Assembly: GCA_017465945.1 (NCBI GenBank)
Contig: JAFTVD010000001.1
Coordinates: 41,604 to 105,603 of the forward strand
Direction: 5' to 3'
Origin: Alphaproteobacteria bacterium
Lineage (GTDB): Bacteria; Pseudomonadota; Alphaproteobacteria; RF32; CAG-239
Length of the DNA stretch: 64,000 bases
The position numbers and the translations under genes are program-made. This document shows, one piece after another, positions 2,710 to 28,288 of the stretch (position 1 is the first letter of the stretch; every line of letters starts with the position of its first letter). The notes beneath the pieces are model-generated. The model saw only the letters and a program-made list of their open reading frames with translations, did not search any database and was not told where the DNA came from.

Positions 2710-4224
2710 ATGAAATTTTTGCCATTATGTTTGTTATTATCCGTAGCATTTTATCATAGCAATGCTCAAGCAGATCACACATACAGAATAGAGGACACAC
2801 GCATAATAAATAATGTATTATACGATGTTAATGGAGACCCTGTTACAGGTATTTACGAAACATTTTATGAAAACAACGTAAAAAAGAGCAATTTACCTTA
2901 CGTTGATGGCATACTACATGGTGTAGGCACAATTTATAATGAAAAAGGATATAAAGAAACAGACATACCTTTTGTAAATGGTAAAAAAGAAGGCATCGCC
3001 CTAACATATTATGAAAATGGAAATTTAAAAGAAAAGACACCTTATCGTAATGATTTGATTGATGGCATAAAACGTACATACTATGAAAATGGTAATGTAA
3101 AAGAGCGAATTAACTACGTAGCCAACAATCAAACAGGAACAACTAAAACCTATTACGAAGATGGTAATTTAAGAGAAACAATAAATTATATTGATAACAA
3201 AAAAAATGGTGAAGCAATTGTTTATTTTTACGACGGAAGTGTTGCAGAAAAACTAACCTACAATAATGATACAATAACAGGCGAGCGTTATGTTTACTAT
3301 AAAAGTGGTAACCTAAAATCTCGCATTGAATATGCCTTAGGCAAAAAAAATGGTATGATGTATAACTATTTTGAAGATGGCAACTTAAAGTCAGAAATTC
3401 CATACAAAAATGATGTTGTAGATGGCATAGGAACATTCTACAAAGAAAACGGTGAACTTAACCTAAAAGTAAGTTACAAAGATAATATTCGCCAAGGAAA
3501 AGCCACTGCTTTTTACCCTAATGGCAAACAACAACTTGTAGCTAATTATGTTAATGACATCAAAGACGGTATAGAAACCCAATATTTTGAAAATGGCAAA
3601 GTAGCCTCTGAAACTCCATACAAAGAAGGTATTATAAATGGTATAGGAAGAGAATATTATACCACATCAGGCTTAAAAAGTGAAATCACATATGTTGATG
3701 CAATAGCTAATGGTATGGCTAAATTTTATGATGAAAAAGGCTATCTAACATCAGAAGTTAACTATAATAAAGGCAAAAAGAATGGACTTCAAAAAAATTA
3801 TAATTCTCAAGGTATCATAATCTCTGAAAGCAATTACATTGATGATACACTAGACGGAGAATACAAAGAATACTACGATAATGGTAAAATCAAATCAACC
3901 GCTATGTATGAAAATGGTGCACTTAATGGTTTAAGTTTAATATATGACCAAGAAGGCAATTTGTCATTTGAAATTCCATATGTAAAAAATAGAAAAGAAG
4001 GCAAAGTAAAACGTTACTACCCAACAGGTGAAGTTATGGGTGAAGTAAGTTACGAAAAAGGCAAAAAACATGGAATGCTAGACGCCTATAACCAAGATGG
4101 CACCCTAATGGCAAAAGTATTATTTAATAAAGACGAAGCCATTAAAGGCTATAGCCTAGACCACGGCAAAAAACCAGTTCTTATGACAAAAGAAGAACTA
4201 AAAATCATAAACGAAAGTTACTAA
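2710..4224 (+). CDS. Secreted MORN-variant (YwqK-like) repeat protein
   Basis: Signal peptide (LLSVAFYHSNAQA), then about 20 tandem ~23-aa units of the form Y-Y-E-N-G-x-L-K-x-E-x-P-Y-x-N-x-x-x-D-G. Confidence 0.85.
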   Translation: MKFLPLCLLLSVAFYHSNAQADHTYRIEDTRIINNVLYDVNGDPVTGIYETFYENNVKKSNLPYVDGILHGVGTIYNEKGYKETDIPFVNGKKEGIALTYYENGNLKEKTPYRNDLIDGIKRTYYENGNVKERINYVANNQTGTTKTYYEDGNLRETINYIDNKKNGEAIVYFYDGSVAEKLTYNNDTITGERYVYYKSGNLKSRIEYALGKKNGMMYNYFEDGNLKSEIPYKNDVVDGIGTFYKENGELNLKVSYKDNIRQGKATAFYPNGKQQLVANYVNDIKDGIETQYFENGKVASETPYKEGIINGIGREYYTTSGLKSEITYVDAIANGMAKFYDEKGYLTSEVNYNKGKKNGLQKNYNSQGIIISESNYIDDTLDGEYKEYYDNGKIKSTAMYENGALNGLSLIYDQEGNLSFEIPYVKNRKEGKVKRYYPTGEVMGEVSYEKGKKHGMLDAYNQDGTLMAKVLFNKDEAIKGYSLDHGKKPVLMTKEELKIINESY

Positions 4225-4272: not shown

Positions 4273-5304
4273 CTATCTACTTTTTACATTAGTTTTTGCC
4301 AAATTTTTCGCTACAGAATTATTTATAACTTTAATCATAAAATCTGTATCTTCATTTCCAAATTTTTTTGCAAATTCAACCGCTCTCTTGGTATTTGCAC
4401 CATAAGAAACAAGTAGATCAACTTTTTTTTGCCACTCATCATCAAACGTATTTTGACTACAACCAATCATTAAATCTTCCAAAGGTGTAATACTTCCATC
4501 AACACTAAGTCCATTATCACTTATTTTTGAATTCACATATTTTCCACCATCACTTTTTAACAATAATTCAAGTGTTTCTGGTTTTCCAACATTAACCACA
4601 TTAAATAAAGCACCTTCTCTATCAAAATTCACATTATTCTCTAAACAAAATTTAATCGCAGAATATGAATATGGTGTAATACCTTCCGCTTTATTTCCTT
4701 TTTCCAATAAATATTTTCCTATCCCATCGACATCAATATTATGATCACTTGATTTGTATAAAACAATTTCTAACAAATTCCGTCCATCTTCATTTGTTGC
4801 ATTTAAATCTGCGCCATTTTTTTCTAAAAACTTCACCATCTCTAAAGTTTCTGCATAGTGTATTGGTTTATTATTTTTTCTCGCCCGAACTTCTCGTTCA
4901 TCAAAGCGTTCTAACATTTCTATCTCTTTTTCAATTTTTTCTTCTGTCCAACCCAACCCCCTAAGTTCTTCACGAGTTTTGTTTCTATCAGGCTTATTAT
5001 AAGTATCTGGCATAGGAGCATTAACATCTAAACCATCTTTTATCATCCTCTCAACAACATCAATTCTATTAGCCCCCAGAGCATACTCAAGCGACATACC
5101 CACAGTATCTCTATCTAAATCAAAAACCAGTACTTGATCCTCCCTTGCTCCAACATATTCTACCTTATCTTCTTTTACATCATCCTTATTATTTCCTTCA
5201 TTACTAGCACACGATGTAAGCGAAGCTGCACTAATTAATGTAGCTAAACCAGCCATTTTCATTTTACTTTTAGCTCTTTCTATTTTTTCTTTTATATCAC
5301 TCAT
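4273..5304 (-). CDS. Ankyrin-repeat lipoprotein
   Basis: GGAGA RBS. Lipobox-like AASLTS|C after a hydrophobic stretch. Several ANK-like units (e.g. KFLEKNGADLNATNEDGRNLLEIVL, MIKDGLDVNAP, LLVSYGANTK). Confidence 0.8.
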   Translation of the reverse strand: MSDIKEKIERAKSKMKMAGLATLISAASLTSCASNEGNNKDDVKEDKVEYVGAREDQVLVFDLDRDTVGMSLEYALGANRIDVVERMIKDGLDVNAPMPDTYNKPDRNKTREELRGLGWTEEKIEKEIEMLERFDEREVRARKNNKPIHYAETLEMVKFLEKNGADLNATNEDGRNLLEIVLYKSSDHNIDVDGIGKYLLEKGNKAEGITPYSYSAIKFCLENNVNFDREGALFNVVNVGKPETLELLLKSDGGKYVNSKISDNGLSVDGSITPLEDLMIGCSQNTFDDEWQKKVDLLVSYGANTKRAVEFAKKFGNEDTDFMIKVINNSVAKNLAKTNVKSR

Positions 5305-7323: not shown

Positions 7324-10300
7324 CTAAAAGCTATATCTAACCCCAACACCACCTTCGATATTGCTTTCTTTTTCACTTATATGCGAAATTTCAGCACCTA
7401 CACTTAAATCTCCATCTTTATACATTGCCTCAGCAGTTGTTTTTAAGCGGTTTTTATCCTCATCATAATATCCTGCATCAAAGCTAACAGGACTTCCCTT
7501 CATTGTTACATCTAAACGTTTATATGGATCTAAAAACTCATGATAATATTTACTGCCAATAGCAAACATTAATGAACGATTCTTAGCAAATTCTATTGTT
7601 TTACGAAGTTTCAAACCAATTCCTGCCTCAAGTGATAAACTATTATTAGATTTTAATACAAATCCCTCGTTATTTTCATCTGCATCATCACTTGCTATAC
7701 CTTGCAAATTAAGTTCTGCCTCGGCAACCAACTCTGCAACTTTCATATCTACGCTATATTCGATACTATTATTCATACCATAATAAATATCAAACGTATC
7801 AGCCTCATAATTTCCAGACATTGCATTACGATTATAACTTCCCATTCCAGCACCTGCTGTAATAGTCCCCAAATACTTGAAATTATTATTTTTATATAAT
7901 ATAGGCATAAACGCCATTATTATCTTATTTTCTTTATCCGAATTCACATCATCATACTGGCTGTCAACATATGAAGCACTTAAACCCAATCCCATATTCC
8001 AGTTTTTATTTAATTTCCATCCATTTAATAAGCTAGCAGTATAAATATCTGCCTCATAACCACTCAAATTATCAATACCATCTTTTCCTGTTCTATAAAC
8101 ATTTGCCCCAACACTCACACCGTCTAAACCATCATTTAATATTTTTCTTTGTTCAGTAGATGTAATGTTACGTACAACAGCCATATTTTCACGTGGTAGA
8201 TTTGCATAAAATTTCTTACCACTTTCACTTTCAACAACTGCATTAAATTCTTTTTTATTTGTTGCAGATTTCAAACTATTATACATTTTTTCATTATGAG
8301 CCAAATTATAATTCATTTCAAAAAATTCGCCTAAATCTTTTTCTTCAACTAATTCTTCAAAACTCTTACGATTTAATTCTACATCTGATACATCCTTATT
8401 ATTATTAATCTTTGCATCAAACATATAAGACTGAGATTTTATACTTAGCCCATTATTTTCCCCCACAAATGAATCTTTATTTTTATAGCTATTTTCAAAA
8501 CCACCCATTACAATATCTTTTGAAGCAAGAACTTCCCCCTTAAAACTATTTGCCTTATAACTACCACCTTTACCTATCACATAACTTGTATCTTCAGCTC
8601 TATCACTAAAGTCTATCTCTCTATCATCAAAATTAACAATTCCTTTGTTTACAAAGCTAGCACCATTATTTAACTCCAATAATGTTGCAACACTAGCAAC
8701 TTCAGCTCCTTCTTCAGTTTCCTCTTCTTTTGCACTAGCATCTACACACTCACCAGTTCCACCAAACGAACCATCCCCATCATTGCATTTTCCTGACTTA
8801 GCACTATCAAACGAAATTATATTATTATTTGTAAAAGAAGCTCCTGATTCTACATATACAGCTGTTCCTGCTCCCGTAACTGTAATACTTCCATTATTTT
8901 CCCCCCTCGTACCATCTTCAAGATAAACACCTATACCACTACCAATTGTAATAGTTCCATTATTTGTTACCGAACCACTTTTGACATGTATACCTTTACT
9001 AGCACTGCCTATTACCACATCTCCATTATTTTCAAAACCTCCTCCATCTACATACACAACAGTTCCATTACCAGTAATATTAGCATTATTACTAAAAATA
9101 CCAGTTGCATATACACCTATACCATTTGTATTTATAGCACCTTCATTTGAACCAGACCCTTTAACACCTATACTATTATAATCATAAACATTTATATTAC
9201 CTTCATTCTTAACAATACCTTCAACCCCGATTCCCCCTAATTCAACAACAATACTCCCAGAATTTTCTGCAGAACCTTTTACCCCAACACCTGACGAAAC
9301 AGATATCATTCCTGTATTTTCAACAGCCCCATACACACCAATACTAGTAGAAGAATTAACAAAAATTCCTCCAGGCTCACTTTCACCTCCAGCTGAATTT
9401 ATTGCATTATTCGAATAAATACCTATTGCATGATCACCAACCGAAATTGTTCCTTTAAGATCTCCATTTGTAGAATTTTCAACCTTTTCTGTAGAATATA
9501 TGCCATAAGCATACGTTGAAATATCACCTGCTGTTGCATCTTGAGCAGAAACAGATAAATCTCCATAGTTATATGCATATGCACCACTTTTTGCATTTAC
9601 TCCTATACTCTTAGTTCCTTCAACAATAATAACACCAGAATTAATAGCCTTTGATTGTATTGATGGCACACCATCAATTGCCCCTATTCCAACACTATCT
9701 TTTTTTACATTAATTACCCCATAATTTTCAACAGTTGCAAAATTTTCAGCATAACCACCTTTTCCTTCAAACACATCAATTTCAGCTCCAGGGGTAACTC
9801 CAGCATAACTACCACTTCCTTCTGCTTTGATACCTATACTATCTTTATCTTTAACAGCCATATAAGCATCACGCCCATCATGATAAGCTTTTCCCTCATT
9901 TTGAGCAACCAAAGCTGTAGCTGAATTTACTACATCAACTTTACCCTTATTATATACTTCAGAACCTTTACCAACAGCTACTAATAAATGAGAATTACTA
10001 CCTGTCACATAAGCTGTTGATGATTTTGAAAAATAAGCATATCCTCCACTTTCACTTGTAATAGCCTTTCCCAAAGTAAATCCGTTAATAAAACCTTTAC
10101 CACTACCATCAACACTACCATCATCTTTAACAATAATTTCAAAATTATAATCTTCAAACATCTTCTTTGCTTCATTTGTCATCATATAAAATACAATATT
10201 ATCTAATCCAGCATTATAAACAATTTCACCATTAACCAATACTTTTGAATCCGGACCATCTAACAAAAAAGCCGTCGTTGAATTATTCATAAGATAAATA

Positions 10301-13071
10301 GTTCCATAATTATAAGCTTGTCCATTTTTCAAATAAATACCCTCTGACCCCAATCCCATAACATAAATATTTGGAGTATAAATACTACTTGTACCACTTA
10401 AACCATTAAACAAATTAGCATTTAAACTTGTTGCTGCCATTCCATGTGAATATTTACCTGTTACATAAATATTACCAAAATTTCTAGCTGACGCTCCTTG
10501 TGTTGAATCATTCCTGATACCTATAGAATCATGAGATGCAACAAATATATTGCCATAATTTTCAGCATACGCTTCAGCTGTTGCCGTAGTATCAACATAA
10601 ATACCTGTATTATATTGGTTTATATCTTCTTCATACAAGTTAAGAACAATATCTCCATGATTAAAAGCTGAACCTTGTTTAGAAACACTAACCACAGCCG
10701 TACCATACGTACCACCATAGTCAACATTATCTCTCCAAATATCTCCTAAAGTAATAACACCATTCTCCTCATTCAAAAAGGTCTGTTTTGTAGATGCGCT
10801 ATCTCCTGAAACACTAACAACTGATGCAATCGGAGTATTTTTCACTGTAATACCAACATCATCAGCACCACCTCCTGCAATTGGATAATTCTCGGAATTA
10901 CCAACTTTATAATCAATCGCTCCGCTATTTGTTATCTTTGAAAAATTATCACCAAATACTTTAGAGCCGGTTGCCTTATTTGAGAGATAAATTCTTCCAT
11001 TATTTGTAATATTAACAGATCCTGAAAATTCATTTAAAATCGCAGTAGATTGCATAGAATAAACATTGATAATTCCCTCATTAACCATATTCACTAAATC
11101 TGTTTTATCAGCACCTGCAGCAAACATACCATAATTGTTCGTATAATAAGATTGCCCGTTTTCAACACCCAAATTAATAACACCATAATTTGTAATCTCA
11201 CCACCATCAAAAGATGCCATTGCGTAAGAATTACTAACTTGCATATCAATCAATCCATAATTTAACAATTTTGGATCTTTCCATTCATAAATTCTTGTTT
11301 GCGAACCATCACCTTTAGATGCAAGCATTCCATAAGTAACACCACCTGAATTAGCTTCATTTTTAATTCTTATAACACCTACAGCACTACCAGTTCCATC
11401 ATAAACGTAATCTTCATTACCATTTATTAATTCTGCACCATGAACAGACAGCATACCTGCAGCCACATCAACACCACCAGATAAAGTTGTTGATGTTAAA
11501 TTAATATCAATATTTCCTAGATTTGTAGCCTTCGTTGAAGCATCTGCTCTAATACCAATCAAACCTCCTTTTCCTAATTTTAATGCAGTATCAGAAATTG
11601 TGTATTCACCTTTATATGAAAGCTTAATATCCGCATCCTTACTATTCTCTAGTTCCATTTGTTCTGCAAAATACGGATTATAATTTTCATTTAAAAACAT
11701 CTCATCAATATATGAACCCATACCAACAAGGCTAACTCCAATCCCTGTTGCTGCATTATATCCAGCAGAAAGTTGAATCGTTCCCATATTAGTAGCTCGA
11801 ACAGTATTGCTACTTAAATTAGTACCTGTGTAAAAGTCAAATACCCCCATACCTAACATAGAACCTGAATTAGGAATAATTACTCTGTCTTCATCTTCTT
11901 CACTACCTTCTTCTTGAGAGGCATCATCCTCAATAATACCATCACCCAATACCAAGTCCCCACTAGCTCCTTCATCTGTACCTTCAAACGCTACAGACGT
12001 TGTACCTGTAATTTTTCCATAATTGGTAATTACAGAATTAGTATCGGCATACATACCAATAAGAGAATTACCCTCTGTTCCCCCCTTAAATGACATATTA
12101 ATATTTCCATAACCTAGATTATCTTCCTTTATATTACTTCCAGCCATATCAATATTGCCATCATTATATTCTTTACTATCTTTTCCATTAACAGCTAAAG
12201 CACCATTACTTGCACTCATACCAATAGAGCCATTTCCTGCTTTAATATCAATATTACCTTTACTAAAAGCTTGACTTTTATCACCATGAACAGCAATTCC
12301 AATAACACCATCACCTAATGAAAGAGTGCCTCTATTATCAAGTATTCCGCCATTTTCAACCTTATAATATGTTTTTATCAAATCGGCTTGTTTTATGGTA
12401 TTAGGCAATAATTTAATTGAATTTATATTTCCAAGTTCATTATTTTCAAAACTATAATTAGTTTCATTTTCTTTTTTTTCACCAGAAATGAGTTCTTCAT
12501 AGTTTTCAACATATCCACTTAATCCTATACCTGGTTCAATAGTAGTAATATTAGATCCATTCATATTACCCAAAGGTGCAGAACTACCTCCACCACCACC
12601 ACCACTAAAGGCTAGCAAACCACCACCAATGGCAATACCACCCAATATCCATGGGTTTAATTCAAAATCAGAACCATCATAATATAAAGATTCTTTATTA
12701 CCTAATATCTTTTCTTCTCTAACAGTTTTTGTAGATGCTAGAAACTCTTGATATTCTTTATGTATCCTATATGTACACTGATGTCTTGGATTTGCACCAC
12801 TCATTCTAAAACTATTATAGGCTACATAATCTTTCCTTTTAATAGCTATACAAAGTCCTGTATCTCCATTCAAATTAACAGAATCGATATTAAGTCCTCT
12901 ATTAACCGCATTTCTTAAGATTCCAACCTTACCATTTTTAGCTAAATAATACATTTTATTAAAATCTTGAGGTCTTAAATTTTTTACAGCAGCAAAAACA
13001 TCTCCTTTAGGCACACCAACCCCAAGGATAACCGCTAATAAGACTATCAAAATTTTAATTTTCATATTCAT
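7324..13071 (-). CDS. Giant (1,915 aa) autotransporter-type adhesin with an N-terminal ankyrin-like module
   Basis: Signal peptide, an ANK-like segment (NGDTGLCIAIKRKDYVAYNSFRMSGANP), a Gly-rich hydrophobic segment (WILGGIAIGGGLLAFSGGGGGG), ~1,300 aa of degenerate N-x-G-x-I-x-V / G-I-Y repeats, and a C-terminal beta-domain ending GVGVRYSF. Confidence 0.85.
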   Translation of the reverse strand: MNMKIKILIVLLAVILGVGVPKGDVFAAVKNLRPQDFNKMYYLAKNGKVGILRNAVNRGLNIDSVNLNGDTGLCIAIKRKDYVAYNSFRMSGANPRHQCTYRIHKEYQEFLASTKTVREEKILGNKESLYYDGSDFELNPWILGGIAIGGGLLAFSGGGGGGSSAPLGNMNGSNITTIEPGIGLSGYVENYEELISGEKKENETNYSFENNELGNINSIKLLPNTIKQADLIKTYYKVENGGILDNRGTLSLGDGVIGIAVHGDKSQAFSKGNIDIKAGNGSIGMSASNGALAVNGKDSKEYNDGNIDMAGSNIKEDNLGYGNINMSFKGGTEGNSLIGMYADTNSVITNYGKITGTTSVAFEGTDEGASGDLVLGDGIIEDDASQEEGSEEDEDRVIIPNSGSMLGMGVFDFYTGTNLSSNTVRATNMGTIQLSAGYNAATGIGVSLVGMGSYIDEMFLNENYNPYFAEQMELENSKDADIKLSYKGEYTISDTALKLGKGGLIGIRADASTKATNLGNIDINLTSTTLSGGVDVAAGMLSVHGAELINGNEDYVYDGTGSAVGVIRIKNEANSGGVTYGMLASKGDGSQTRIYEWKDPKLLNYGLIDMQVSNSYAMASFDGGEITNYGVINLGVENGQSYYTNNYGMFAAGADKTDLVNMVNEGIINVYSMQSTAILNEFSGSVNITNNGRIYLSNKATGSKVFGDNFSKITNSGAIDYKVGNSENYPIAGGGADDVGITVKNTPIASVVSVSGDSASTKQTFLNEENGVITLGDIWRDNVDYGGTYGTAVVSVSKQGSAFNHGDIVLNLYEEDINQYNTGIYVDTTATAEAYAENYGNIFVASHDSIGIRNDSTQGASARNFGNIYVTGKYSHGMAATSLNANLFNGLSGTSSIYTPNIYVMGLGSEGIYLKNGQAYNYGTIYLMNNSTTAFLLDGPDSKVLVNGEIVYNAGLDNIVFYMMTNEAKKMFEDYNFEIIVKDDGSVDGSGKGFINGFTLGKAITSESGGYAYFSKSSTAYVTGSNSHLLVAVGKGSEVYNKGKVDVVNSATALVAQNEGKAYHDGRDAYMAVKDKDSIGIKAEGSGSYAGVTPGAEIDVFEGKGGYAENFATVENYGVINVKKDSVGIGAIDGVPSIQSKAINSGVIIVEGTKSIGVNAKSGAYAYNYGDLSVSAQDATAGDISTYAYGIYSTEKVENSTNGDLKGTISVGDHAIGIYSNNAINSAGGESEPGGIFVNSSTSIGVYGAVENTGMISVSSGVGVKGSAENSGSIVVELGGIGVEGIVKNEGNINVYDYNSIGVKGSGSNEGAINTNGIGVYATGIFSNNANITGNGTVVYVDGGGFENNGDVVIGSASKGIHVKSGSVTNNGTITIGSGIGVYLEDGTRGENNGSITVTGAGTAVYVESGASFTNNNIISFDSAKSGKCNDGDGSFGGTGECVDASAKEEETEEGAEVASVATLLELNNGASFVNKGIVNFDDREIDFSDRAEDTSYVIGKGGSYKANSFKGEVLASKDIVMGGFENSYKNKDSFVGENNGLSIKSQSYMFDAKINNNKDVSDVELNRKSFEELVEEKDLGEFFEMNYNLAHNEKMYNSLKSATNKKEFNAVVESESGKKFYANLPRENMAVVRNITSTEQRKILNDGLDGVSVGANVYRTGKDGIDNLSGYEADIYTASLLNGWKLNKNWNMGLGLSASYVDSQYDDVNSDKENKIIMAFMPILYKNNNFKYLGTITAGAGMGSYNRNAMSGNYEADTFDIYYGMNNSIEYSVDMKVAELVAEAELNLQGIASDDADENNEGFVLKSNNSLSLEAGIGLKLRKTIEFAKNRSLMFAIGSKYYHEFLDPYKRLDVTMKGSPVSFDAGYYDEDKNRLKTTAEAMYKDGDLSVGAEISHISEKESNIEGGVGVRYSF

Positions 13072-13182: not shown

Positions 13183-15744
13183 CTAATTATTATTTTCAAC
13201 CATCCTATCTTCTTGTAATTTATTATTTTTAAAATTTTTCGCATAAACATGGCTAACTAACAATAAAACTCCTGCCAATGCAAAAAGTGATATTATTCGC
13301 CAAAATTCATTTAAATTAGAAACATCATATAAGAAAATTTTTGCTATCACAAAATAAATCAATCCAAATGCAGGTTTTATCATAATATCAACATAAAACG
13401 CACTTGCCAACCATAAAACACCCAAAATAAGCCACACTAATGAATATAAGAACAAAGCACCACTAGTTAAATCTTGTCCACCAAAAGATGGATGACCATA
13501 AAAGTTAATATTCAACACCGAGGTTACTAAAACAAACGACAACCCTGCTATAACTTTTATCGCAAAATTATATATCTCTTTATTTCTTTGAGAAATAAGA
13601 TACAACAAAGACATTGGAATAACATAAATAAATACAGTATATGGCACATTAAGTTTTCCTGAAGCATATATTGGAACAAATATCATCGAACACATAACTA
13701 ATAATCTGAAAAATGCAATAATTCCCCCACAAATATACAAAGGACCATTATTTTTGCACACAAACAACAAGAACAATAAAATTAGGTCTGTTATTATAAC
13801 ATAATCGCTTATATCAATATTGTAGTACACAATATTATTTGCTGACATTTTCATCATTATAATTGCCAAAAACAAAACACTTAAACCAAAAACTACAACT
13901 AGTTTTTTCATAAATGCTCGCATTTCATCTTGTTTACACAACATATATGAGGCAACAAAACACATCAACGGAACAATTCCATAAACAATTAATCTGAGCC
14001 CCGTTAAACTATTGCCATCAAAATGTGCATTCCATCCCCATACATTAAATGGAAGTATTAGCAACAACATTTTCCAAATCGCATTTCTTAACAAATATAC
14101 TAACCAAATACATATAGCGAAAAGCCCATACTCTGCAAATCTTATATTTAGACGATCTTTAATTAAGCTAAATACCAAAACTTCAATAGCAGCAAACATT
14201 ACAAGCAAATTATTGCTTAACAACATACACAAACCAAGACTAAGCATCATAGCCCCAGATAATATCATTAAGCCAGATATTTTTTGAGATATATCGTCAT
14301 CATCCCTATTACAAAAATATGGCACTAATAATAACAAACAAGCCCCAAACCCTATATACGAAATAAAGTAAACATCTCTAAAAAGATAATATGCCACCAA
14401 ATAGTATGCAGGGCAAATCACTGCCAAATATACTGCCAAATAAACATTTCTAAATTTCTTTAATAAAATTAAATAATATGGCAATATAGCAACCACTGAC
14501 ATTATAGCATACATACTTCCCCCAATTTTATTATAAAATTGAGAGCAATACATTAAAATAACAATACCAACAGAACAAAAAATAGTTTGTACTAAATACA
14601 TACCAGAACGTATAATCGATAAATATACAAACAAGCTTAAAAGAAGTGCGCACATACCCCATTCAAGTGTTCCAAAATTTGTTTTTGCAAGACACATTAT
14701 GCAAAAAACAAAACACCCCACCATTGCAATACCACTATTTTTAGTATTATCACTCATTGTCTTTGAAAAAGAAGATATTAACAGCGTTGCAATAACTAAC
14801 ATCATAATCCATACTGTATTTAACATCTGAAAATCAAACATAAATAAAAGTAAAAATGCCCATAAATATATTCCGCCAAACATTAACAATACAATTAAAG
14901 ATGAAACAACAAATACACCACTATATACTACAACCCCAAATAACATTAATAAATAAAACGAAGATAAAAATACCGCCCCCTCATTAAATGAATAAACAAG
15001 AGATGGAGTTAAAAATCCACCCAATAAAGTTAAAATAGCAATAGGCTGTTCTTTTATCTTTGTAACAAGATGCATTGCAAGTAATGTAACACCACACATC
15101 AAAACAAATGAAACACCAACTGATGTTATAAAGTATAACTTTGATAACGCATATGATACAAAATAAAGTGCTACAATACCAATACTTATTAAAACCTGAG
15201 ATATTCGCTTACTATCAGCAAAGTCCTCTTTATAAAATAACTTATTACCTCCCCAAATTGCAAAAGATGCTCCTATTGTTAATAATAACAAACGCACTTG
15301 AGGTGATAAAATACCATGAGATACTAAAAATCTAACCAAGAAAAATACCCCAAGAATAGCTGCAAAACCAGCCACCCAAACCAAAAAATTCTTTTCCTGT
15401 TTTTCAGAAACATCTATAATATCTTCTTCAAATTTTTTATAATTATCAACAATCTCTACTTTTTTATTGATATGCTCTTCTTTTAAAACAACCTTTTTTT
15501 CATCTTCAACTTTATCATTTGCCACAACTTCTCTTTTTTGCTTTAATAATTGAACAGATGAATATGTTTTTGCCACCTTTTCCTTTTCATCTATATTTTC
15601 TCTACAAAGCCTTTCTACCTTTTTTTGTAAATCATGTACCCAAACCAATAAAAAACAAACCAATGCATATAAAACAAAGGTCTTTGTTTCTATAATATTT
15701 AACACACCTAAAAAAGTAAAAAGTAATATAAATTCAAAAAACAT
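13183..15744 (-). CDS. DUF2339-like polytopic membrane protein (853 aa)
   Basis: N-terminal TM, a K/E-rich coiled-coil-like region, then more than 20 predicted TM helices. The architecture recalls the DUF2339 family. Confidence 0.7.
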   Translation of the reverse strand: MFFEFILLFTFLGVLNIIETKTFVLYALVCFLLVWVHDLQKKVERLCRENIDEKEKVAKTYSSVQLLKQKREVVANDKVEDEKKVVLKEEHINKKVEIVDNYKKFEEDIIDVSEKQEKNFLVWVAGFAAILGVFFLVRFLVSHGILSPQVRLLLLTIGASFAIWGGNKLFYKEDFADSKRISQVLISIGIVALYFVSYALSKLYFITSVGVSFVLMCGVTLLAMHLVTKIKEQPIAILTLLGGFLTPSLVYSFNEGAVFLSSFYLLMLFGVVVYSGVFVVSSLIVLLMFGGIYLWAFLLLFMFDFQMLNTVWIMMLVIATLLISSFSKTMSDNTKNSGIAMVGCFVFCIMCLAKTNFGTLEWGMCALLLSLFVYLSIIRSGMYLVQTIFCSVGIVILMYCSQFYNKIGGSMYAIMSVVAILPYYLILLKKFRNVYLAVYLAVICPAYYLVAYYLFRDVYFISYIGFGACLLLLVPYFCNRDDDDISQKISGLMILSGAMMLSLGLCMLLSNNLLVMFAAIEVLVFSLIKDRLNIRFAEYGLFAICIWLVYLLRNAIWKMLLLILPFNVWGWNAHFDGNSLTGLRLIVYGIVPLMCFVASYMLCKQDEMRAFMKKLVVVFGLSVLFLAIIMMKMSANNIVYYNIDISDYVIITDLILLFLLFVCKNNGPLYICGGIIAFFRLLVMCSMIFVPIYASGKLNVPYTVFIYVIPMSLLYLISQRNKEIYNFAIKVIAGLSFVLVTSVLNINFYGHPSFGGQDLTSGALFLYSLVWLILGVLWLASAFYVDIMIKPAFGLIYFVIAKIFLYDVSNLNEFWRIISLFALAGVLLLVSHVYAKNFKNNKLQEDRMVENNN

Positions 15745-22055: not shown

Positions 22056-22535
22056 TTACCATCTAGGAACGTTTTGTCCTCTATTACCACTCCACTTGCG
22101 AGCAGGATATCCACCTTTTTCAATTATATCATATTTAGCAGGCAACTGAGGAATATCTGTAATCAACACATACCCTTCATCTCTAAACTTTTCAACACAA
22201 GCCTTAACATCTCCGCCATTTCTTTCCATACACAAAACAACTGTTCTTGTATATGGATGAATAAGCTCAACATCACCTTCACTTAAATTTACATCATTAT
22301 AATATGTTGGCATAGGCTGAACACAAGGCTGATATGGCACCATTTGTTCATCACTGCATACTCGATTATTAGGACAAACTTTTAAGCCACCTTTTGTTAA
22401 CCACTTGCTTTCAGACCATGTGCAAAGAACTTCTTTTTGTTCAAACTCCAAATACACATCATCATTTTGGCTTTTACACCCAAATAACATCAATAAAACA
22501 AAAAAAACAGCCCACAACTTCCCCAAATTAAGCAT
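22056..22535 (-). CDS. Cys-rich lipoprotein (159 aa), unknown function
   Basis: Lipobox LMLFG|C. Six further Cys residues. No family recognised. Confidence 0.65.
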   Translation of the reverse strand: MLNLGKLWAVFFVLLMLFGCKSQNDDVYLEFEQKEVLCTWSESKWLTKGGLKVCPNNRVCSDEQMVPYQPCVQPMPTYYNDVNLSEGDVELIHPYTRTVVLCMERNGGDVKACVEKFRDEGYVLITDIPQLPAKYDIIEKGGYPARKWSGNRGQNVPRW

Positions 22536-22621: not shown

Positions 22622-22651
22622 AAAAAAGCAGGTTTTTACACCTGCTTTTTT
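22622..22651. terminator. Terminator after the giant prepilin-like gene
   Basis: aaaaaaGCAGGT-ttttac-ACCTGCttttttt: A-run, 6-bp stem, then T-run. Confidence 0.7.
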
Positions 22652-22653
22652 TA

Positions 22654-25600
22654 TTACCATATTTCATTATACTTAAGCGTCGGATCATCTAAGCGTTGAA
22701 GATATTCTGAACCACTACTAACTGTTGCCTTATCAATATTGCTATAACCCGTTGCTTCTGGATTATATTGCAATACATGTTGTGGGTCAAACTCGCTACG
22801 TTTAAAGTAACAATAAACTGTTGCATGTCCTTCAAGAGTATTTGTAACAACAGGGAACAAGTTCCAAACATATCCACTCAATACAGCTCCACCAGTTGGA
22901 TTACCTCCACCATTTTGAGTATTGTTAGAAAGAATATTATCTGTACCATCTATTCCGCTTCCTAGACCATCCCAAAATCTAGTATTATAAATAAATCCCA
23001 TACGAGCTTCCCAATATTTATCATCTTTGGGCTTAAGAGATGTTTTTAAGAATGTTCCTTCTTGGAAATACAATGGCTCTGCCACAGTATAACTAGAACC
23101 ATCCATATCAGTATACTTACCAACATTATCAGTTCCACTCCAAGACAAACTAGCCTTTGCACTACCATACTCATCAGACTCAGCCGTTAATCCCCAGAAC
23201 CAACCTTCTAGCTTAAAGTCATTTGTTGCAACAAATTGAGAGAAAGTATCAGAACTTTGATAAATAGCATTCCAATTTAAGCTTTTTACTTCTTCCATTG
23301 TTGGATACACTAATCCACCATTTGTACTAGCTGCAGCTTTTAATATATTTGCCTGTTTATCACCCTCAATAATTTGCCATTTATGATTAGCGCTATCCAC
23401 TGGCATAGCATGCCCTGCCTTACCTATTTGGAAAGAAATTGGTACAACCGTTGCAAGTCCTACATATTTTGGTGGACACATTGGAAAATAAATATTGCCT
23501 AAATATGGGTCAGCCCATTCCTGATTCTCATTAACTGCAACTCTACGTCCGCCACCTTCTACATAGTCGTTAGACACATTATATACACCTTTTAACACAT
23601 AGTCTGGCAAAATATCGCTCAATCTAGCATTACCACGAGTTGTAAGTTTAATATCATGCATCACAGATGTATACGCAGGATTTACCATATATTGGTCATA
23701 TCGAGCATCCGCTGCTGTTCCCCCAACATCAGGAACTACCATATCAGCATTAGAAACCAATCTATTTGCTTTAATATAGCCATAACCAGCATCAGCTTCC
23801 ACCCTTCCACCTACAGCACTAGAATTACTTTTTTCTAATTCTATTGCACCACGACGAATATAAATAGACGTATCCGCCATCTCATCAACCAAACTAGAAC
23901 CTTGAGTATCATGAGACGCAATAGTTAACAACGCAAAATTATCATCACCATTTGATATAAATTGTCCTGCAGAATCTTTTGCTAAAACTCTAACATAATC
24001 AGGATCAATCTCAAACATAGCTCTAGAACTATCTTCTTTCGCTGTATTATGAGAACCACTTGCAATATGAATTATATCATTACCTGTAACATGTAAACTA
24101 CCATCAATCTCTACATTAGCCGAACTATTAGCCACAGCATCAGGATATACACCAAACACAGTCGAACTATTACTACCTTTTTGAACTTCAAAGTCTACAT
24201 ATCTAGTTCTAACAACATCAGCATCTGCATAAAACTGTGAATCCTCTACCTCATCATAAACAGTACTACTTGTCTTAATTCCAAATTTACTTGCATTTGC
24301 CTCAATTCTATTTTCGACACCTGCAAGATTATGTCCATATAATTTTAAAGCACCATTTTGAATATCTACCTTACTAGAAGCTGATATATCATATGTATAC
24401 ATATTAACACCAACGCCACCCATAATATATGATGAACCACTAACCCCTGTTGAATCACTAGCATCAGCTCTAAAGTTATTATATAAAGAACCAACATGTG
24501 TAACACCATGGTCTAACTGAACCCAAGCTCCTTCTGTATCACTTAACACTGCAACACCTGATGATGCAAGGAACATAACATCTAACCCATCACCATAACT
24601 ATCTTGATTTTCCGTTGTAATTTTGTTTGGATCACGAATTACAACTCTTCCACCGCCAACTCCACTAGATTCTCCATATACATTAAGCCAAGCTGTCTTA
24701 GGATGTGCAGTAAAATCAGCCATATTTTTATATCCAGCATGAAGATTTGCCATACCTGCATCACGAAGCCAAGCTTTTCTAGCCCATAAGGTCTGGTCAA
24801 CCCAAGCAGAACCAGCTACACCCAACGTCCATCCACCACGACTATATACACCATCTCCATGATTTTCACTAACATCTGTCATAGCTTCAGAACCCAAATA
24901 CGTAGAGCCCAATATATCTGTAAATTTAGTTGTAACAGCTGTAAAACCATCCACAGCAGTTAAACCATTTGCACTTGCACCACCGGCAGAAACTCCTGAT
25001 GACATTCCATGATTATCCGCAAACACTTGAAAACGCTTTCCATGTAAAGAAACCGTACTAGAACCTGTACCACTAGAACCACCAAAATCTGCATAAATCA
25101 TTGCTTGTTCAGCATCTGTTTCGCCGACAGTAAATAAACTTCCACCTTCTTTTAAGATATTAACATAAGAACTATCATGATCACTACCACCAGCAGTTAA
25201 CCAACCTCCTTCATCTGGTCCCATATATAACAAACCACCACCAGAGTTAATATGTGTATCAGAATGAATCATCGAACTTGAACTATCATCACTAGCATTG
25301 ATGTACACAGAGCCACCTTTTTCTGCTATATACACATTACTACCTTGCTTACTACCAACTTTAATAGAATGTTGCTCACCTTCTGCCACACCTAAGAACA
25401 TCGGATCTGTTGAAGAACTATCATCTGCACTACCTGCAACCATAAATGTATGCGTTGTACCTTCTTTTTGGGCACTCACAAATTCACCTATCAATTTAAC
25501 TTCTGCATTTGTACCACTTACATCTCCTGTTGCATATACAATATCATATAAACCTTCTACGGCAGTAGAACCATCTCCATATGTTGGTTTAAATATCATC

Positions 25601-26622
25601 TCGGCTGTTGAACTTCCTGAACCCGTTATCTTAAAGCCTTCATTTAAAGCCGTTAAGTTACCATAAATCCACGCTGCACCATTGTTACGATATCGTCTAG
25701 CATTTTCAGAATCCGGTTCTTCATTATAATGAGGTTTACCAATATATAAGTCAGCAATATCAGGAGTGCACATTGAAGAGTTAAAGTTAGTACTAAATTG
25801 TTGCTCTCTATTACATTGACTATGCATCATTAATTTTCTAACGTTATAAATACCATAGAACCCCTCAAAACCTTTATAACCATCATTAGTTTCCTCGTGC
25901 CCCCCCATATAAAGGTCTGTAATCATTGTGTTATGAAACGCATCTCTTGGGTCATCAGGTGGTGTACGATATAAATACTTATCATTATCTTCTGTTGAGT
26001 TTTCAATTGGTTCATTTGCTGTAACAATTAAAGAATTTTCTGTCAATATAGAATTAGATATTCCTAAATCTTCAACCATTGAACTATCTAAGAACCACGC
26101 ACCACCTGTACCTTGAGCTTCTTTTCTATCCGTAATTATACCACCATTTGCTCCCACTAAAGATGCGATTCTTGCTGCCCTTTTCTTACCAGGATCAACT
26201 TTATAAGGATACACAATATAAGAAACTAAAGTATTACCATCTCTATGTACATAAATTTGAGGGGTACCATAATTTCTAATACTGTCAGGTTTATAACCAT
26301 ATGGTAAAAAGCTAGAATATCCCTTATAAAAATATTCCCCACTTGCACCACTACTATCATCATCATACGCAATTTTTATAGTCGACTCACTTTCGCTTGA
26401 CGTTTCCAACATTATCTCTAAAAAGTGTGTTGAAACAAGAGTTTCTATCACATCATTCATTGTACGAGCTTGTGACGCAGAGTTAATATCTTGTATTTCT
26501 TGCAAACGCTCTGCAGATTTTTTATACAAAGTTGGAGTAACAAGGGCTATTAACCCAAGCATAGCAATCGCTTCCACTAAAAGTGTACCGCGTTGCTCTG
26601 TTTTGTTAAAAAATTTCCTCAT
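22654..26622 (-). CDS. Giant (~1,322 aa) protein with a prepilin-type N-terminal cleavage/methylation-like motif
   Basis: The ATG at 26622 lies 6 nt after GGGAGA, whereas the ORF-track TTG at 26628 abuts the RBS. N-terminus MRKFFNKTEQRG|TLLVEAIAMLGLIALVTPTLY: Gly at -1, Glu at +5, and a ~20-residue hydrophobic helix. The rest is G/S/D/T-rich with no family recognised. Confidence 0.8.
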   Translation of the reverse strand: MRKFFNKTEQRGTLLVEAIAMLGLIALVTPTLYKKSAERLQEIQDINSASQARTMNDVIETLVSTHFLEIMLETSSESESTIKIAYDDDSSGASGEYFYKGYSSFLPYGYKPDSIRNYGTPQIYVHRDGNTLVSYIVYPYKVDPGKKRAARIASLVGANGGIITDRKEAQGTGGAWFLDSSMVEDLGISNSILTENSLIVTANEPIENSTEDNDKYLYRTPPDDPRDAFHNTMITDLYMGGHEETNDGYKGFEGFYGIYNVRKLMMHSQCNREQQFSTNFNSSMCTPDIADLYIGKPHYNEEPDSENARRYRNNGAAWIYGNLTALNEGFKITGSGSSTAEMIFKPTYGDGSTAVEGLYDIVYATGDVSGTNAEVKLIGEFVSAQKEGTTHTFMVAGSADDSSSTDPMFLGVAEGEQHSIKVGSKQGSNVYIAEKGGSVYINASDDSSSSMIHSDTHINSGGGLLYMGPDEGGWLTAGGSDHDSSYVNILKEGGSLFTVGETDAEQAMIYADFGGSSGTGSSTVSLHGKRFQVFADNHGMSSGVSAGGASANGLTAVDGFTAVTTKFTDILGSTYLGSEAMTDVSENHGDGVYSRGGWTLGVAGSAWVDQTLWARKAWLRDAGMANLHAGYKNMADFTAHPKTAWLNVYGESSGVGGGRVVIRDPNKITTENQDSYGDGLDVMFLASSGVAVLSDTEGAWVQLDHGVTHVGSLYNNFRADASDSTGVSGSSYIMGGVGVNMYTYDISASSKVDIQNGALKLYGHNLAGVENRIEANASKFGIKTSSTVYDEVEDSQFYADADVVRTRYVDFEVQKGSNSSTVFGVYPDAVANSSANVEIDGSLHVTGNDIIHIASGSHNTAKEDSSRAMFEIDPDYVRVLAKDSAGQFISNGDDNFALLTIASHDTQGSSLVDEMADTSIYIRRGAIELEKSNSSAVGGRVEADAGYGYIKANRLVSNADMVVPDVGGTAADARYDQYMVNPAYTSVMHDIKLTTRGNARLSDILPDYVLKGVYNVSNDYVEGGGRRVAVNENQEWADPYLGNIYFPMCPPKYVGLATVVPISFQIGKAGHAMPVDSANHKWQIIEGDKQANILKAAASTNGGLVYPTMEEVKSLNWNAIYQSSDTFSQFVATNDFKLEGWFWGLTAESDEYGSAKASLSWSGTDNVGKYTDMDGSSYTVAEPLYFQEGTFLKTSLKPKDDKYWEARMGFIYNTRFWDGLGSGIDGTDNILSNNTQNGGGNPTGGAVLSGYVWNLFPVVTNTLEGHATVYCYFKRSEFDPQHVLQYNPEATGYSNIDKATVSSGSEYLQRLDDPTLKYNEIW

Positions 26623-26633
26623 ATCCAATCTCC

Positions 26634-27557
26634 CTATAAAAATTGTTTAATTGTAAATATACACCCCTTGTTGCACATATCATTACCATCTTTATCCCTA
26701 AAAAACTCTCGCTTAAACACTTCATTAGGCAAAGTCCATGCAGTTTTCTCTTTCATTGTTGAGGGAAAATAATCATCTAAAGCGTGCGTTTTGTACCACT
26801 CTGCCTCCGCATGTCGATACGATGGCAAAAAACGCATCCTCCCTCTAAATTGCCATGATCCATTTTTCCAACTGATAACCCCAACGTTATTATAAAATTC
26901 TCTCTCCTTTATCGCATTTGTAAAGTCAATACCTACCTCACCTGTTATTTTACCTAACCATTGAGCATCAACTTTTTTATAAGAAACTATAAACACTTCA
27001 TTAGATGAATTACAACATGTACCTACAATTTGTCCTGGATCAGAAGGATCTGTTGCAACATTGCACGTTTCAACCTTTCCAAATTCTCCATCTGGACCTT
27101 GACAAAATTCGTACCCTTCAGAATTATCATCAGTACAACTCATATCCCTATCTAAACACACTATTTTTGAAATCATTTCATCATCACCATACAAACGTTT
27201 CCCCATTTGCATAATATTAGCTGATTCACTATCACTTGTTTTACGAAGATAAAATGTTTTTTCAACCCCTGTGCGTTCATCTTGATCATACACTAAATTT
27301 ACGTCTTTTCCTTTACCTGATATTGAAGAGTCAGAATATATCATATCACCTGGCAAAATAAATAAAATATCATCTGAATAATCACCTTTATTTATTTTTG
27401 ATACTAATCTTGTTACTTCTGAGTGATGGGCAATAAATCTTGTCAATACGGCCATAGCCTTTTTACGCACAATATCCCTATCATAATCAGGACGTGCGGA
27501 CAAATTATATCCATATATTGCCGACATATAAGTCGCAAGTAACATCAATAAATACAT
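26634..27557 (-). CDS. Cys-rich N-terminally anchored protein (307-313 aa), first gene of the prepilin-like operon
   Basis: The start is ambiguous. The ATG at 27557 has GGAGA 7 nt upstream. The GTG at 27575 has GGGGAGA 9 nt upstream. The N-terminus has an uncharged hydrophobic segment (MYLLMLLATYMSAIYGY) and there are 8 Cys. Its TAG stop overlaps the RBS of the downstream gene. Confidence 0.7.
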   Translation of the reverse strand: MYLLMLLATYMSAIYGYNLSARPDYDRDIVRKKAMAVLTRFIAHHSEVTRLVSKINKGDYSDDILFILPGDMIYSDSSISGKGKDVNLVYDQDERTGVEKTFYLRKTSDSESANIMQMGKRLYGDDEMISKIVCLDRDMSCTDDNSEGYEFCQGPDGEFGKVETCNVATDPSDPGQIVGTCCNSSNEVFIVSYKKVDAQWLGKITGEVGIDFTNAIKEREFYNNVGVISWKNGSWQFRGRMRFLPSYRHAEAEWYKTHALDDYFPSTMKEKTAWTLPNEVFKREFFRDKDGNDMCNKGCIFTIKQFL

Positions 27558-27594
27558 AAAAAAATCTCCGACCACATATGTATATCTCCCCGAT

Positions 27595-27623
27595 ATTATA
27601 CACTAAAATTTATTAAAAATCAA
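27595..27623 (-). promoter_or_regulatory. Sigma70-type promoter candidate of the prepilin-like operon
   Basis: Minus strand TTGATT (27623..27618), 17-nt spacer, TATAAT (27600..27595). Confidence 0.5.
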
Positions 27624-27695
27624 CTAAAAAATAGAAAAAGACTGCCTTATTTACCTCTAAACAAGACAGCCCTTTTATTACATTTACTAAAAAGA

Positions 27696-28145
27696 TTAAC
27701 GCATTTGAGGATTATAGCAACTCATAACCAAATCCTCCTTTTTATAAAACACTTTATACATAGCATAAAGCAAAGATAAAACAATCAAAGCCATATAAAC
27801 ATCATACACTGGCATATAATTATTTAAAAACACCGTTACACTATCATTACCTGTTACCATATAATCAGTAAGCATTGTTAAAATAGCATAAATTACTGTA
27901 AAATATGGTATCCATCCAATAGAAGCTAAAAACACAGAAATTTTAGGGAAATTTTCATTCATTCTATGAACAAATCCCCATGATGCAACAAACGACATAG
28001 AAAGAGCAAGTACCGCAACCCAAAACAAAATATACAAAACACCACCTGTCGCATAAGCAAACTCTGTATTAAACATCGCTAAAATAAAAGCTAAAACCTG
28101 ATACATACCGCCAAGTAGCAATAGTTCACTTTTACACATTTTCAT
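27696..28145 (-). CDS. Small 4-TM membrane protein, unknown function
   Basis: AGGAGG RBS. Three closely spaced ATGs; the second, at 28145, has the best spacing. Four hydrophobic helices. Confidence 0.6.
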   Translation of the reverse strand: MKMCKSELLLLGGMYQVLAFILAMFNTEFAYATGGVLYILFWVAVLALSMSFVASWGFVHRMNENFPKISVFLASIGWIPYFTVIYAILTMLTDYMVTGNDSVTVFLNNYMPVYDVYMALIVLSLLYAMYKVFYKKEDLVMSCYNPQMR

Positions 28146-28288
28146 CATATCCTCCTATTTTTATTATTTCACATACACATTTAAGCTTTTATTCTTCAAA
28201 TCCAACCTCTACTTTGGGATAAAATTAAAATAATTAAAGCATTTTTAACCTCAATATGTTATCATAAAAGAACAATTTGGAGGTAATT

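Follow-up and report, generated by a model that had tools for sequence, protein, structure and literature searches.

The 64,000-nucleotide stretch of alphaproteobacterial DNA analyzed here (contig JAFTVD010000001.1, positions 41,604 to 105,603; hereafter the window) contains a two-gene operon for a 307-residue membrane protein, which we call the partner, and a 1,322-residue protein, the giant protein, which is 100% identical to the database entry 'MAG: hypothetical protein IJZ30_00305 [Alphaproteobacteria bacterium]'. Judged by its sequence pattern, the N terminus of the giant protein is that of a class III (prepilin-type) signal, but by hidden Markov model (HMM) searches and operon context it falls outside the known pilin families. 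The reading that we favor, tentatively and with a probability of roughly 0.45, takes the giant protein for a very large subunit of a type IVb-like system, akin to a minor pilin and processed by a prepilin peptidase. The original prediction for this locus had offered either a giant modular pilin or pseudopilin assembled by machinery encoded elsewhere, or an undescribed use of a pilin-type N terminus to anchor or export a very large surface protein. The premise of both, a conserved Gly-1 and Glu+5, stood, and relatives were found to encode an A24 prepilin peptidase and type IVb pilins; on the other hand, HMM, PDB and Foldseek searches gave no tie to pilins, and no motor was found in the window or in the related loci sampled.

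The N-terminal signal of the giant protein

The giant gene (22654..26622; all features of the operon are on the minus strand) lies in an open reading frame (ORF) spanning 22654..26628 and encodes 1,322 amino acids followed by TAA. Its start at the ATG at 26622, as originally proposed, is upheld by a GGAGA located 6-7 nucleotides upstream and by the homologues, whose N termini align from the same start. The protein thus begins MRKFFNKTEQRG↓TLLVEAIAMLGLIALVTPTLY (MRKFFNKTEQRG↓TLLVEAIAMLGLIALVTPTLYKK in a longer view; the arrow marks the predicted cleavage site), where residues 1-12 (MRKFFNKTEQRG; 26587..26622) form a basic leader that ends in an invariant Gly-1, and residues 13-33 (TLLVEAIAMLGLIALVTPTLY; 26524..26586) form the hydrophobic part of the α1 helix, with invariant Glu+5 (E17), Gly+11 and Pro+18.

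Gly-1 and Glu+5 were present in 65 of 66 distinct homologue N termini, the sole exception being a truncated gene call, and E17 did not vary at all in one alignment (A5) and was conserved to 90% or more in another (A1). The homologue leaders are likewise basic, with lengths of 9-21 amino acids. Three N-terminal subtypes were distinguished, i.e. G↓TLLVEA (subtype 1, that of the window), G↓S(L/M)M(I/V)EA and G↓G(L/M)M(I/V)EA; Gly-1 was found in all 21 subtype-3 loci, and Glu+5 is also kept in this subtype. The basic leader, Gly-1, Glu+5 and hydrophobic helix first described for the window are therefore conserved in every complete N terminus across the three subtypes, so that the proposed check on homologues came out in favor of the Gly-1/Glu+5 pair. 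Moreover, the +1 residue varies among the subtypes (T, S or G), and a +1 position that changes between a fixed Gly-1 and a fixed Glu+5 is what a class III signal should show. The adjective "canonical" that had been applied to this N terminus could not be retained, since Thr, and neither Phe nor Met, occupies its +1 position and it is matched by neither the N_methyl nor the TadE model. A Gly-x4-Glu pattern followed by a hydrophobic run occurs only once in the six frames of the window, and about three false positives were obtained in 1.85 Mb of related DNA, i.e. about 0.1 expected per 64 kb. When the N-terminal module was compared by hhalign with the type IVb pilins of the same clade, the only similarity fell in the signal and helix segment, where the two align in register (P 0.013).

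The profile searches did not connect the protein to any pilin family. No match to N_methyl (PF07963/IPR012902) was obtained with the full giant protein at E <= 1 or with 27 N-terminal fragments at E <= 10, the fragments giving chance Pfam matches only, and neither the protein nor the fragments matched TadE (PF07811) or the Tad N-terminal model (PF13400). The missing HMM match is weak counter-evidence, because the bona fide pilins of the clade also lack a precomputed N_methyl match.

AlphaFold2 was run separately on residues 1-360 and 880-1322. In the first model a continuous helix (residues 2-73) is followed by an alpha/beta domain that extends to about residue 210, with low confidence beyond; the 10-residue blocks of this N-terminal part had predicted local distance difference test (pLDDT) values of 74-95, mostly above 85. 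The N-terminal module was accordingly delimited to residues 13-215 (25978..26586), comprising the long helix to residue 73 and the alpha/beta domain. Its predicted fold has no significant pilin match, since a Foldseek search of the model against the PDB gave nothing below the threshold (E <= 0.001; best E 0.76). GspK and TadG are large subunits of their systems, and the best pilin-related Foldseek match of this model, a weak one ranked 37th, was to the model of an Xcp pseudopilin (E 2.8, TM-score 0.48 on the target), which would suit a pseudopilin of a type II secretion system (T2SS) or of a Tad system, GspK-like or TadG-like. We consider this explanation very improbable, given that no TadE, Tad or T2SS pseudopilin HMM matches the giant protein, that the pilins found in related genomes belong to type IVb (Bundlin, PilS, TcpA), and that no gsp or tad genes were found among the ORFs of the window. 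In addition, GspK has a hydrophobic +5 residue in place of Glu5 and is encoded in a gspHIJK cluster (PMC5207764); it is the largest of its set, with an extra domain on the pilin fold, a layout comparable to that proposed for the giant protein, but the latter keeps Glu+5 and has no gspHIJK-like cluster.

Residues 12-53 of the giant protein are nearly invariant as one block, which weighs against a prepilin signal because the conservation of Gly and Glu is then not specific to them. The block would also suit a plain bitopic inner-membrane complex, a periplasmic or envelope-spanning structure with no relation to type IV filaments, in which the N terminus is an uncleaved Sec/YidC signal-anchor, the Gly-x4-Glu spacing is coincidental, and the conserved helix Glu pairs with Thr, Tyr and Ser of the partner transmembrane helix. 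The absence of any pilin HMM, sequence or fold match fits this explanation, which we nevertheless regard as doubtful: within the block the +1 position varies and Gly-1 and Glu+5 never do, the segment is similar in register to the clade's own pilin signal, and the genomes retain an intact A24 peptidase, including a genome of subtype 1. Furthermore, signal-anchors do not usually have a charge at their fifth position.

Prepilin peptidase and pilins in related genomes

The A24 peptidase of the clade is a protein of 237 amino acids that matches PF01478 (E 2.7e-16) and retains both catalytic Asp motifs; no NCBIfam model and no methyltransferase-type Pfam domain (DiS_P_DiS) matched it. The family comprises 714 clusters, named 'prepilin peptidase [Alphaproteobacteria bacterium]', and spans the clade. 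Its genes (233-238 amino acids; L083:16576-17289(-), L085:15721-16434(-) and L088-L090:10001-10717 of the related loci) stand alone, with groES-groEL, rplY, enolase, PPDK or other housekeeping genes as neighbors, and in L082, L083 and L085 the peptidase gene lies 3-4 kb from the giant gene on the same contig. One member (P0237) shares assembly GCA_023665325.1 with a subtype-1 giant protein (P0077). Hence, with regard to the statement that a genome devoid of any A24 peptidase would speak against the original prediction, such a peptidase is at hand in relatives, one subtype-1 assembly among them.

Canonical pilins of 180-240 amino acids, with the N terminus G↓RSMVEMLGVLAIIGVLS (G↓RSMVEMLGVLAIIGVLSVGG in a further form), are encoded less than 10 kb from the giant gene in 7 loci, and in some loci the distance is 3-13 kb. 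They carry Bundlin and PilS domains, form at least 7,984 clusters, and match BfpA, TcpA and CofA in the PDB with E values of 2e-4 to 0.05, which identifies them as type IVb. Their genes were located at L036:579-1280, L047:14964-15533, L058:16694-17422, L068:7358-8062, L081:1-569, L082:465-1136 and L086:1239-1913 and 14855-15577, and also in L092-L098. These type IVb-like pilin genes are solitary, present in multiple copies and dispersed between housekeeping genes. Although the 120 best pilin clusters range from 54 to 100% in overall identity to the query pilin, 116 of them agree in every one of the 24 residues that start with Gly-1 (GRSMVEMLGVLAIIGVLSVGGIAG), so that a single constant helix seems to be combined with many different pilin heads.

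The distribution of the canonical pilins among the subtypes is uneven. Six were found in 561 kb of subtype-2 loci and more in subtype-3 loci, and none in 629 kb of loci of subtype 1. Nine subtype-1 loci encode, 3-4 kb 3' of the giant gene, PilS/Bundlin proteins of 203-206 amino acids (L012:17673-18293, L028:17337-17957, L091:17996-18607 and six further loci), with PilS scores of 29.7-32.5 bits, above the Pfam gathering threshold of 22. Their N terminus (…QIG↓GWLAFIMLGYLGIR) lacks Glu+5 and part of the hydrophobic helix, and from this sequence they may be decayed or repurposed pilins.

A Walker-A scan for GspE/PilB/TadA-type ATPases in the 1.85 Mb of related loci yielded only ClpX, UvrB and an ATP-binding cassette (ABC) protein, and neither platform nor secretin genes were encountered in these loci; since the sample covers only about 1% of each genome, the absence of a motor is not established. 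The pilin and A24 genes are themselves solitary between housekeeping genes (groESL, ribosomal proteins, tRNA synthetases), and whether the giant operon belongs to a pilus system can therefore not be read from its isolated position.

The subtype-1 data lend themselves to another explanation, in which the giant protein is processed by the A24 peptidase but is not borne on a filament, being instead a giant periplasmic or surface fiber held by its pilin-like helix and the partner; in lineages lacking polymerizable pilins it would then be the main substrate of the peptidase. Subtype-1 genomes keep an intact A24 peptidase and a giant protein with Gly-1 and Glu+5, their loci contain no pilins other than the PilS-like proteins devoid of Glu+5, the sampled loci lack ATPase, platform and secretin, and the A24 gene is isolated, with groESL or other housekeeping genes alongside. 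This explanation would be the favored one if the lack of polymerizable pilins in subtype-1 genomes (0 in 629 kb versus 6 in 561 kb) were real. With the present sampling of about 1% of each genome we regard it as unlikely, also because docking into a filament offers the best account of why Glu+5 is kept (PMC5207764) and because subtype-2 and subtype-3 genomes clearly hold polymerizable pilins. That the polymerizable pilins of subtype 1 have decayed, leaving the giant protein and its partner, with the solitary A24 peptidase, as a minimal, motor-independent use of the prepilin pathway in which the processed protein would build a fiber across the periplasm or on the surface, seems to us similarly unlikely.

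The operon, its two proteins and their surroundings

The two-gene operon announced by the original prediction was borne out by its tightly linked minus-strand ORFs (the partner gene 5' and the giant gene 3'), its ribosome-binding sites, the overlap between the first stop codon and the second of these sites, and its terminator. The partner ORF (26634..27575) offers a GTG at 27575 as an upstream candidate start, but the ATG at 27557 was adopted because all homologues open with an invariant Met-Tyr-Leu; a GGAGA lies 8 nucleotides 5' of this ATG, and the partner gene (26634..27557) consequently encodes 307 amino acids plus a stop codon. This settles the length previously given as 307-313 residues, and the eight Cys residues reported were counted again. 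The TAG of the partner (26634-26636) touches or overlaps the Shine-Dalgarno sequence of the giant gene (TAGGGAGA; 26630..26636). This arrangement implies that the two genes are co-transcribed, and their translation is probably coupled; similarly short gaps were seen between the two genes in other loci.

Right after the giant stop codon, an intrinsic terminator (22622..22652; GCAGGT...ACCTGC followed by a T-run) was found by folding, a simple pattern scan having overlooked it. Its hairpin has a predicted energy of -22 kcal/mol (z = -5.3), and none of 200 shuffled sequences folded as well, so the terminator that had been assigned downstream of the giant gene was substantiated. The status of the promoter is less clear. 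A candidate sigma-70 promoter, TTGATT-N17-TATAAT (27595..27623), is present as described, matches 10 of 12 consensus positions and has a -10 element that ends 38 nucleotides before the partner ATG, but promoter-like matches are equally common in shuffled sequences (31 versus 26.9 +/- 4.7, i.e. no enrichment, in this region of 31.6% GC content), and the assignment of an operon promoter to this site is thus plausible from the sequence and not more than that. An A/T-rich, terminator-like hairpin of 19 pairs (27635-27676(-)) is situated between the putative promoter and the upstream gene 27696-28148, which encodes a 150-amino acid multi-pass membrane protein; its position before the promoter fits an independent transcription unit.

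Beyond the N-terminal module, the giant protein consists of a variable, indel-rich middle region (residues 336-900; 23923..25617), delimited from composition, conservation and gap profiles, a near-invariant motif (residues 973-1007, YDQYMVNPAYTSVMHDIKLTTRGGARLSDILPD...; 23602..23706) that is its most conserved stretch, a C-terminal beta-rich domain (residues 1008-1273; 22804..23601) with invariant Cys1049 and Cys1271, and a conserved tail that ends in the invariant Trp1322. Conservation peaks in two stretches, residues 1-50, where column identity with the window protein reaches 79%, and residues 951-1050; it is lowest at 336-900. The description of the body as rich in Gly, Ser, Asp and Thr and free of internal repeats was accurate: the four residues make up 40% of positions 336-900, and a self-comparison of the middle-region profile gave weak off-diagonal similarity (P 0.004-0.06) without significant repeats. 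We presume that this region is a beta-rich stalk. The AlphaFold2 model of residues 880-1322 contains a confident beta-rich domain at 1008-1273 (blocks of pLDDT 59-94, mostly above 80), whereas the 973-1007 motif was modeled at pLDDT below 50 despite its near-invariance. If the giant protein acted independently of a motor, as considered above for subtype 1, this motif would bind a conserved envelope component, a role that we likewise think unlikely.

Neither the giant protein nor the partner matched any Pfam or NCBIfam model. The domain searches are valid here because autotransporter and AsmA-type domains were detected on other genes of the window; on the giant protein no autotransporter beta-domain and no AsmA/YhdP/DUF490 domain was found with the same two libraries. 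Searches of PDB sequences with the full-length profile, the N-terminal profile and the single N-terminal sequence returned no solved relative, and Foldseek found nothing at E <= 0.001 for the C-terminal model in the PDB or BFVD; Foldseek matches to beta-pore-forming toxins, capsid jelly-rolls and the adenovirus knob were discarded as noise (probability <= 0.2, TM-score <= 0.2). The C-terminal Trp was also rejected as an outer-membrane beta-barrel signal, as no barrel is predicted and no autotransporter match exists. The giant protein and the partner represent two uncharacterized families that neither Pfam nor NCBIfam models, that lack structural relatives and whose members are annotated as 'hypothetical protein', and the possibility raised at the outset that the giant protein belongs to an already characterized family received no HMM, PDB or fold match.

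The partner is composed of an N-terminal hydrophobic helix (MYLLMLLATYMSAIYGY), an NLSxRPDYDR sequence, an amphipathic helix and a Cys-rich domain; five of the eight Cys residues of the window protein are invariant across the family, and in some loci the partner bears an optional short basic extension. A profile search of the partner against the PDB gave no match. The hhalign comparisons with the pilins of the clade and with the N-terminal domain of the giant protein gave only an 11-column YLPxGY-like match (P 0.036). A YLPxGY/LPYGY-like motif follows the N-terminal helices of both proteins (partner residues ~112-130, ~27168-27224; giant protein residues 104-114, ~26281-26313); as a sequence similarity it is too weak for homology.

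A scan of GTDB with one genome per species revealed the giant protein in at least 268 species genomes, essentially all from uncultured gut or rumen Alphaproteobacteria of humans, mice and ruminants. Full-length relatives have 1,294-1,472 amino acids and 37-89% identity, and shorter ones ~910-1,270 amino acids. A profile search with the N-terminal 100 residues against 1.84 billion representatives produced 471 matches at E <= 1e-3 and 288 at E <= 1e-10; the top 150 were all members of the giant family, and no shorter pilin sharing this N terminus was among them. In 80 of 83 loci the partner gene directly precedes the giant gene, which answers affirmatively the question of whether the pair co-occurs across relatives. 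The flanking genes differ completely between lineages and are housekeeping genes, and no other gene was consistently linked to the pair among the loci compared. The pair is a conserved clade-wide module.

This linkage also bears on the uncleaved signal-anchor discussed above. A partner that is universally co-encoded and whose own N-terminal helix is rich in Tyr, Thr and Ser, the core-like setting of the pair among housekeeping genes (no genome contributed more than one of the 80 GTDB loci listed), and the conserved C-terminal motif, which suggests a conserved cellular ligand, are all compatible with a plain inner-membrane complex.

Concerning the loci themselves, in 24 of them (subtypes 1 and 2) an HxlR-family regulator gene is divergent and just 5' of the partner gene (L002:8408-8800, L004:8357-8806, L091:8268-8660 and about 20 other loci, on the minus strand), a position from which it is missing in the window, and it may control the operon in particular lineages. 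Five loci that carry the pair (L054, L078, L082, L083 and L070) come from bins labeled Lachnospiraceae, Bacteroidaceae, [Ruminococcus] gnavus or Eubacterium, which are probably mis-binned or mislabeled, as the neighboring genes on the contigs are alphaproteobacterial.

Pfam scans of essentially all ORFs of the 64-kb window revealed no components of type IV filaments, T2SS or Tad systems, that is, no ATPase, platform protein, secretin or peptidase, just as the original prediction had stated, and no further pilin. The matches obtained were to autotransporter, MORN, ankyrin, BigA-like giant, DUF2339, DsbD, DsbA and YhdP proteins and to housekeeping genes. DsbD and the Cys-rich protein with a lipobox, named before as neighbors, are both present. 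The latter (22056-22535(-)) was rejected as an operon member because its distance and orientation vary among loci (homologues were found in 7 other loci, 8 with that of the window, in loose synteny), and DsbD was rejected as part of the system because it is not syntenic. A second giant gene (7324-13071(-); 1,915 amino acids; BigA_4th by precomputed Pfam, BigA_3rd faintly) adjoins the gene for an 853-amino acid DUF2339 membrane protein (13183-15744(-)) and makes up another large surface-protein locus. The window starts with a cluster encoding an autotransporter beta-domain protein (22-1866(+)), a MORN-repeat protein (2710-4224(+)) and an ankyrin-repeat protein (4273-5304(-)), whose eukaryote-like MORN and ankyrin repeats hint at host interaction.

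Comparison with large minor pilins

Type IVb systems rely on a single large minor pilin of several domains, such as TcpB or CofB, which keeps Glu5 and from which assembly starts at the tip (PMC5207764), and such a position and role have been proposed for TcpB, CofB and PilV together (PMC5207764, PMC8179133). The giant protein shares with TcpB (toxin-coregulated pilus of Vibrio cholerae), CofB (colonization factor antigen III of enterotoxigenic Escherichia coli) and PilV (R64 thin pilus) the class III signal with Glu+5 and a pilin-type N-terminal helix followed by added beta-rich domains, which in the giant protein are predicted. In both cases there is a single large subunit, and the major pilins of the organisms have Bundlin, PilS or TcpA-type domains. 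The differences are also considerable. The giant protein is three times larger (1,322 versus 423-518 amino acids) and has no detectable sequence or significant fold similarity to TcpB or CofB by PDB profiles or Foldseek; TcpB and CofB chains did appear in the top 50 Foldseek matches of the C-terminal model, at non-significant values (E >= 1, TM-score <= 0.2). Its gene is paired with that of a dedicated 307-amino acid membrane partner among housekeeping genes and not placed in a pilus operon like tcpB and cofB, and its C-terminal domain is the most conserved part of the protein and not a variable one.

PilY1/PilC tip adhesins and MshQ are large pilus-associated proteins, of about 1,000 or more amino acids, that are exposed at the tips of filaments (PMC8179133). 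They compare with the giant protein in size and in the position proposed for it, but PilY1/PilC are not pilins and have a Sec signal peptide and a C-terminal beta-propeller (IPR008707); no PilC/PilY1 propeller was found on the giant protein with Pfam or NCBIfam, nor any propeller match of its C-terminal model. Modular pilins, in turn, are widespread, and the set formed by Streptococcus sanguinis PilB and PilC, ComZ and the proteins that combine IPR012902 with a module has the design proposed here for the giant protein, a small pilin carrier to which large functional modules are joined C-terminally (PMC8179133). Unlike these modular type IV pilins, the giant protein has no IPR012902/PF07963 match and its modules correspond to no known domain. 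By analogy, the giant protein may nonetheless be an extreme case of the modular-pilin design, a proposal that we hold with the same reserve as the minor-pilin reading to which it belongs.

Several observations weigh against that reading, and they come from different sides. In the searches described above no Pfam or NCBIfam pilin model matches the giant protein, no pilin of the PDB is found by profile or by single sequence, and the Foldseek results are not significant for either model (Xcp pseudopilin, E 2.8; TcpB/CofB, E >= 1), to which the near-invariance of residues 12-53 has to be added. With 1,322 amino acids the protein is well above the largest modular pilin catalogued, of 860 amino acids (PMC8179133). 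Unlike tcpB and cofB, the giant gene has no major pilin gene as its neighbor; the A24 and pilin evidence comes from the loci of relatives, with none within the window for its own genome; loci of the window's own subtype contain no canonical pilin in 629 kb and only PilS-like proteins that have lost Glu+5; and no ATPase, platform or secretin is encoded in the window or the 1.85 Mb of related loci. Lastly, the conservation of the C-terminal domain is unlike that of a host-receptor adhesin under diversifying selection, and argues against a rapidly evolving adhesin of this kind at that end of the protein.

On the minor-pilin reading, which we still prefer, the two proteins of the operon would both be inserted into the inner membrane and work together. 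The giant protein would carry a class III signal, with the basic 12-residue leader and the hydrophobic helix inserting it N-in, and the stand-alone A24 peptidase of the clade would cleave after Gly12. Once mature, the N-terminal helix bearing Glu+5 would form, together with the adjoining alpha/beta module (residues 13 to ~215 in all), a pilin-like carrier through which the protein may dock at the tip of a type IVb-like filament or prime its assembly, as a functional analogue of the large minor pilins TcpB, CofB and PilV. The variable, putatively beta-rich stalk of about 560 residues and the conserved C-terminal beta domain would be displayed distally, where any adhesive function could reside. 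The co-translated partner, as a predicted bitopic membrane protein with a periplasmic Cys-rich domain, may bind the giant protein through helix-helix contacts in the membrane or in a priming or tip complex.

If the giant protein is filament-borne, its 1,322 amino acids (~910-1,470 in relatives) would make it far larger than any pilin-type subunit that we found described, and would stretch the modular-pilin idea to a cargo of about 140 kDa that needs a dedicated partner, which raises the question of how such a protein is extracted from the membrane and passes through the outer membrane. If it is not, the prepilin peptidase pathway would here serve a protein outside any pilus, which would be rare among bacteria. 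The giant protein would represent a conserved surface structure of uncultured but widespread Alphaproteobacteria of the human, mouse and ruminant gut, present in at least 268 species-level genomes.

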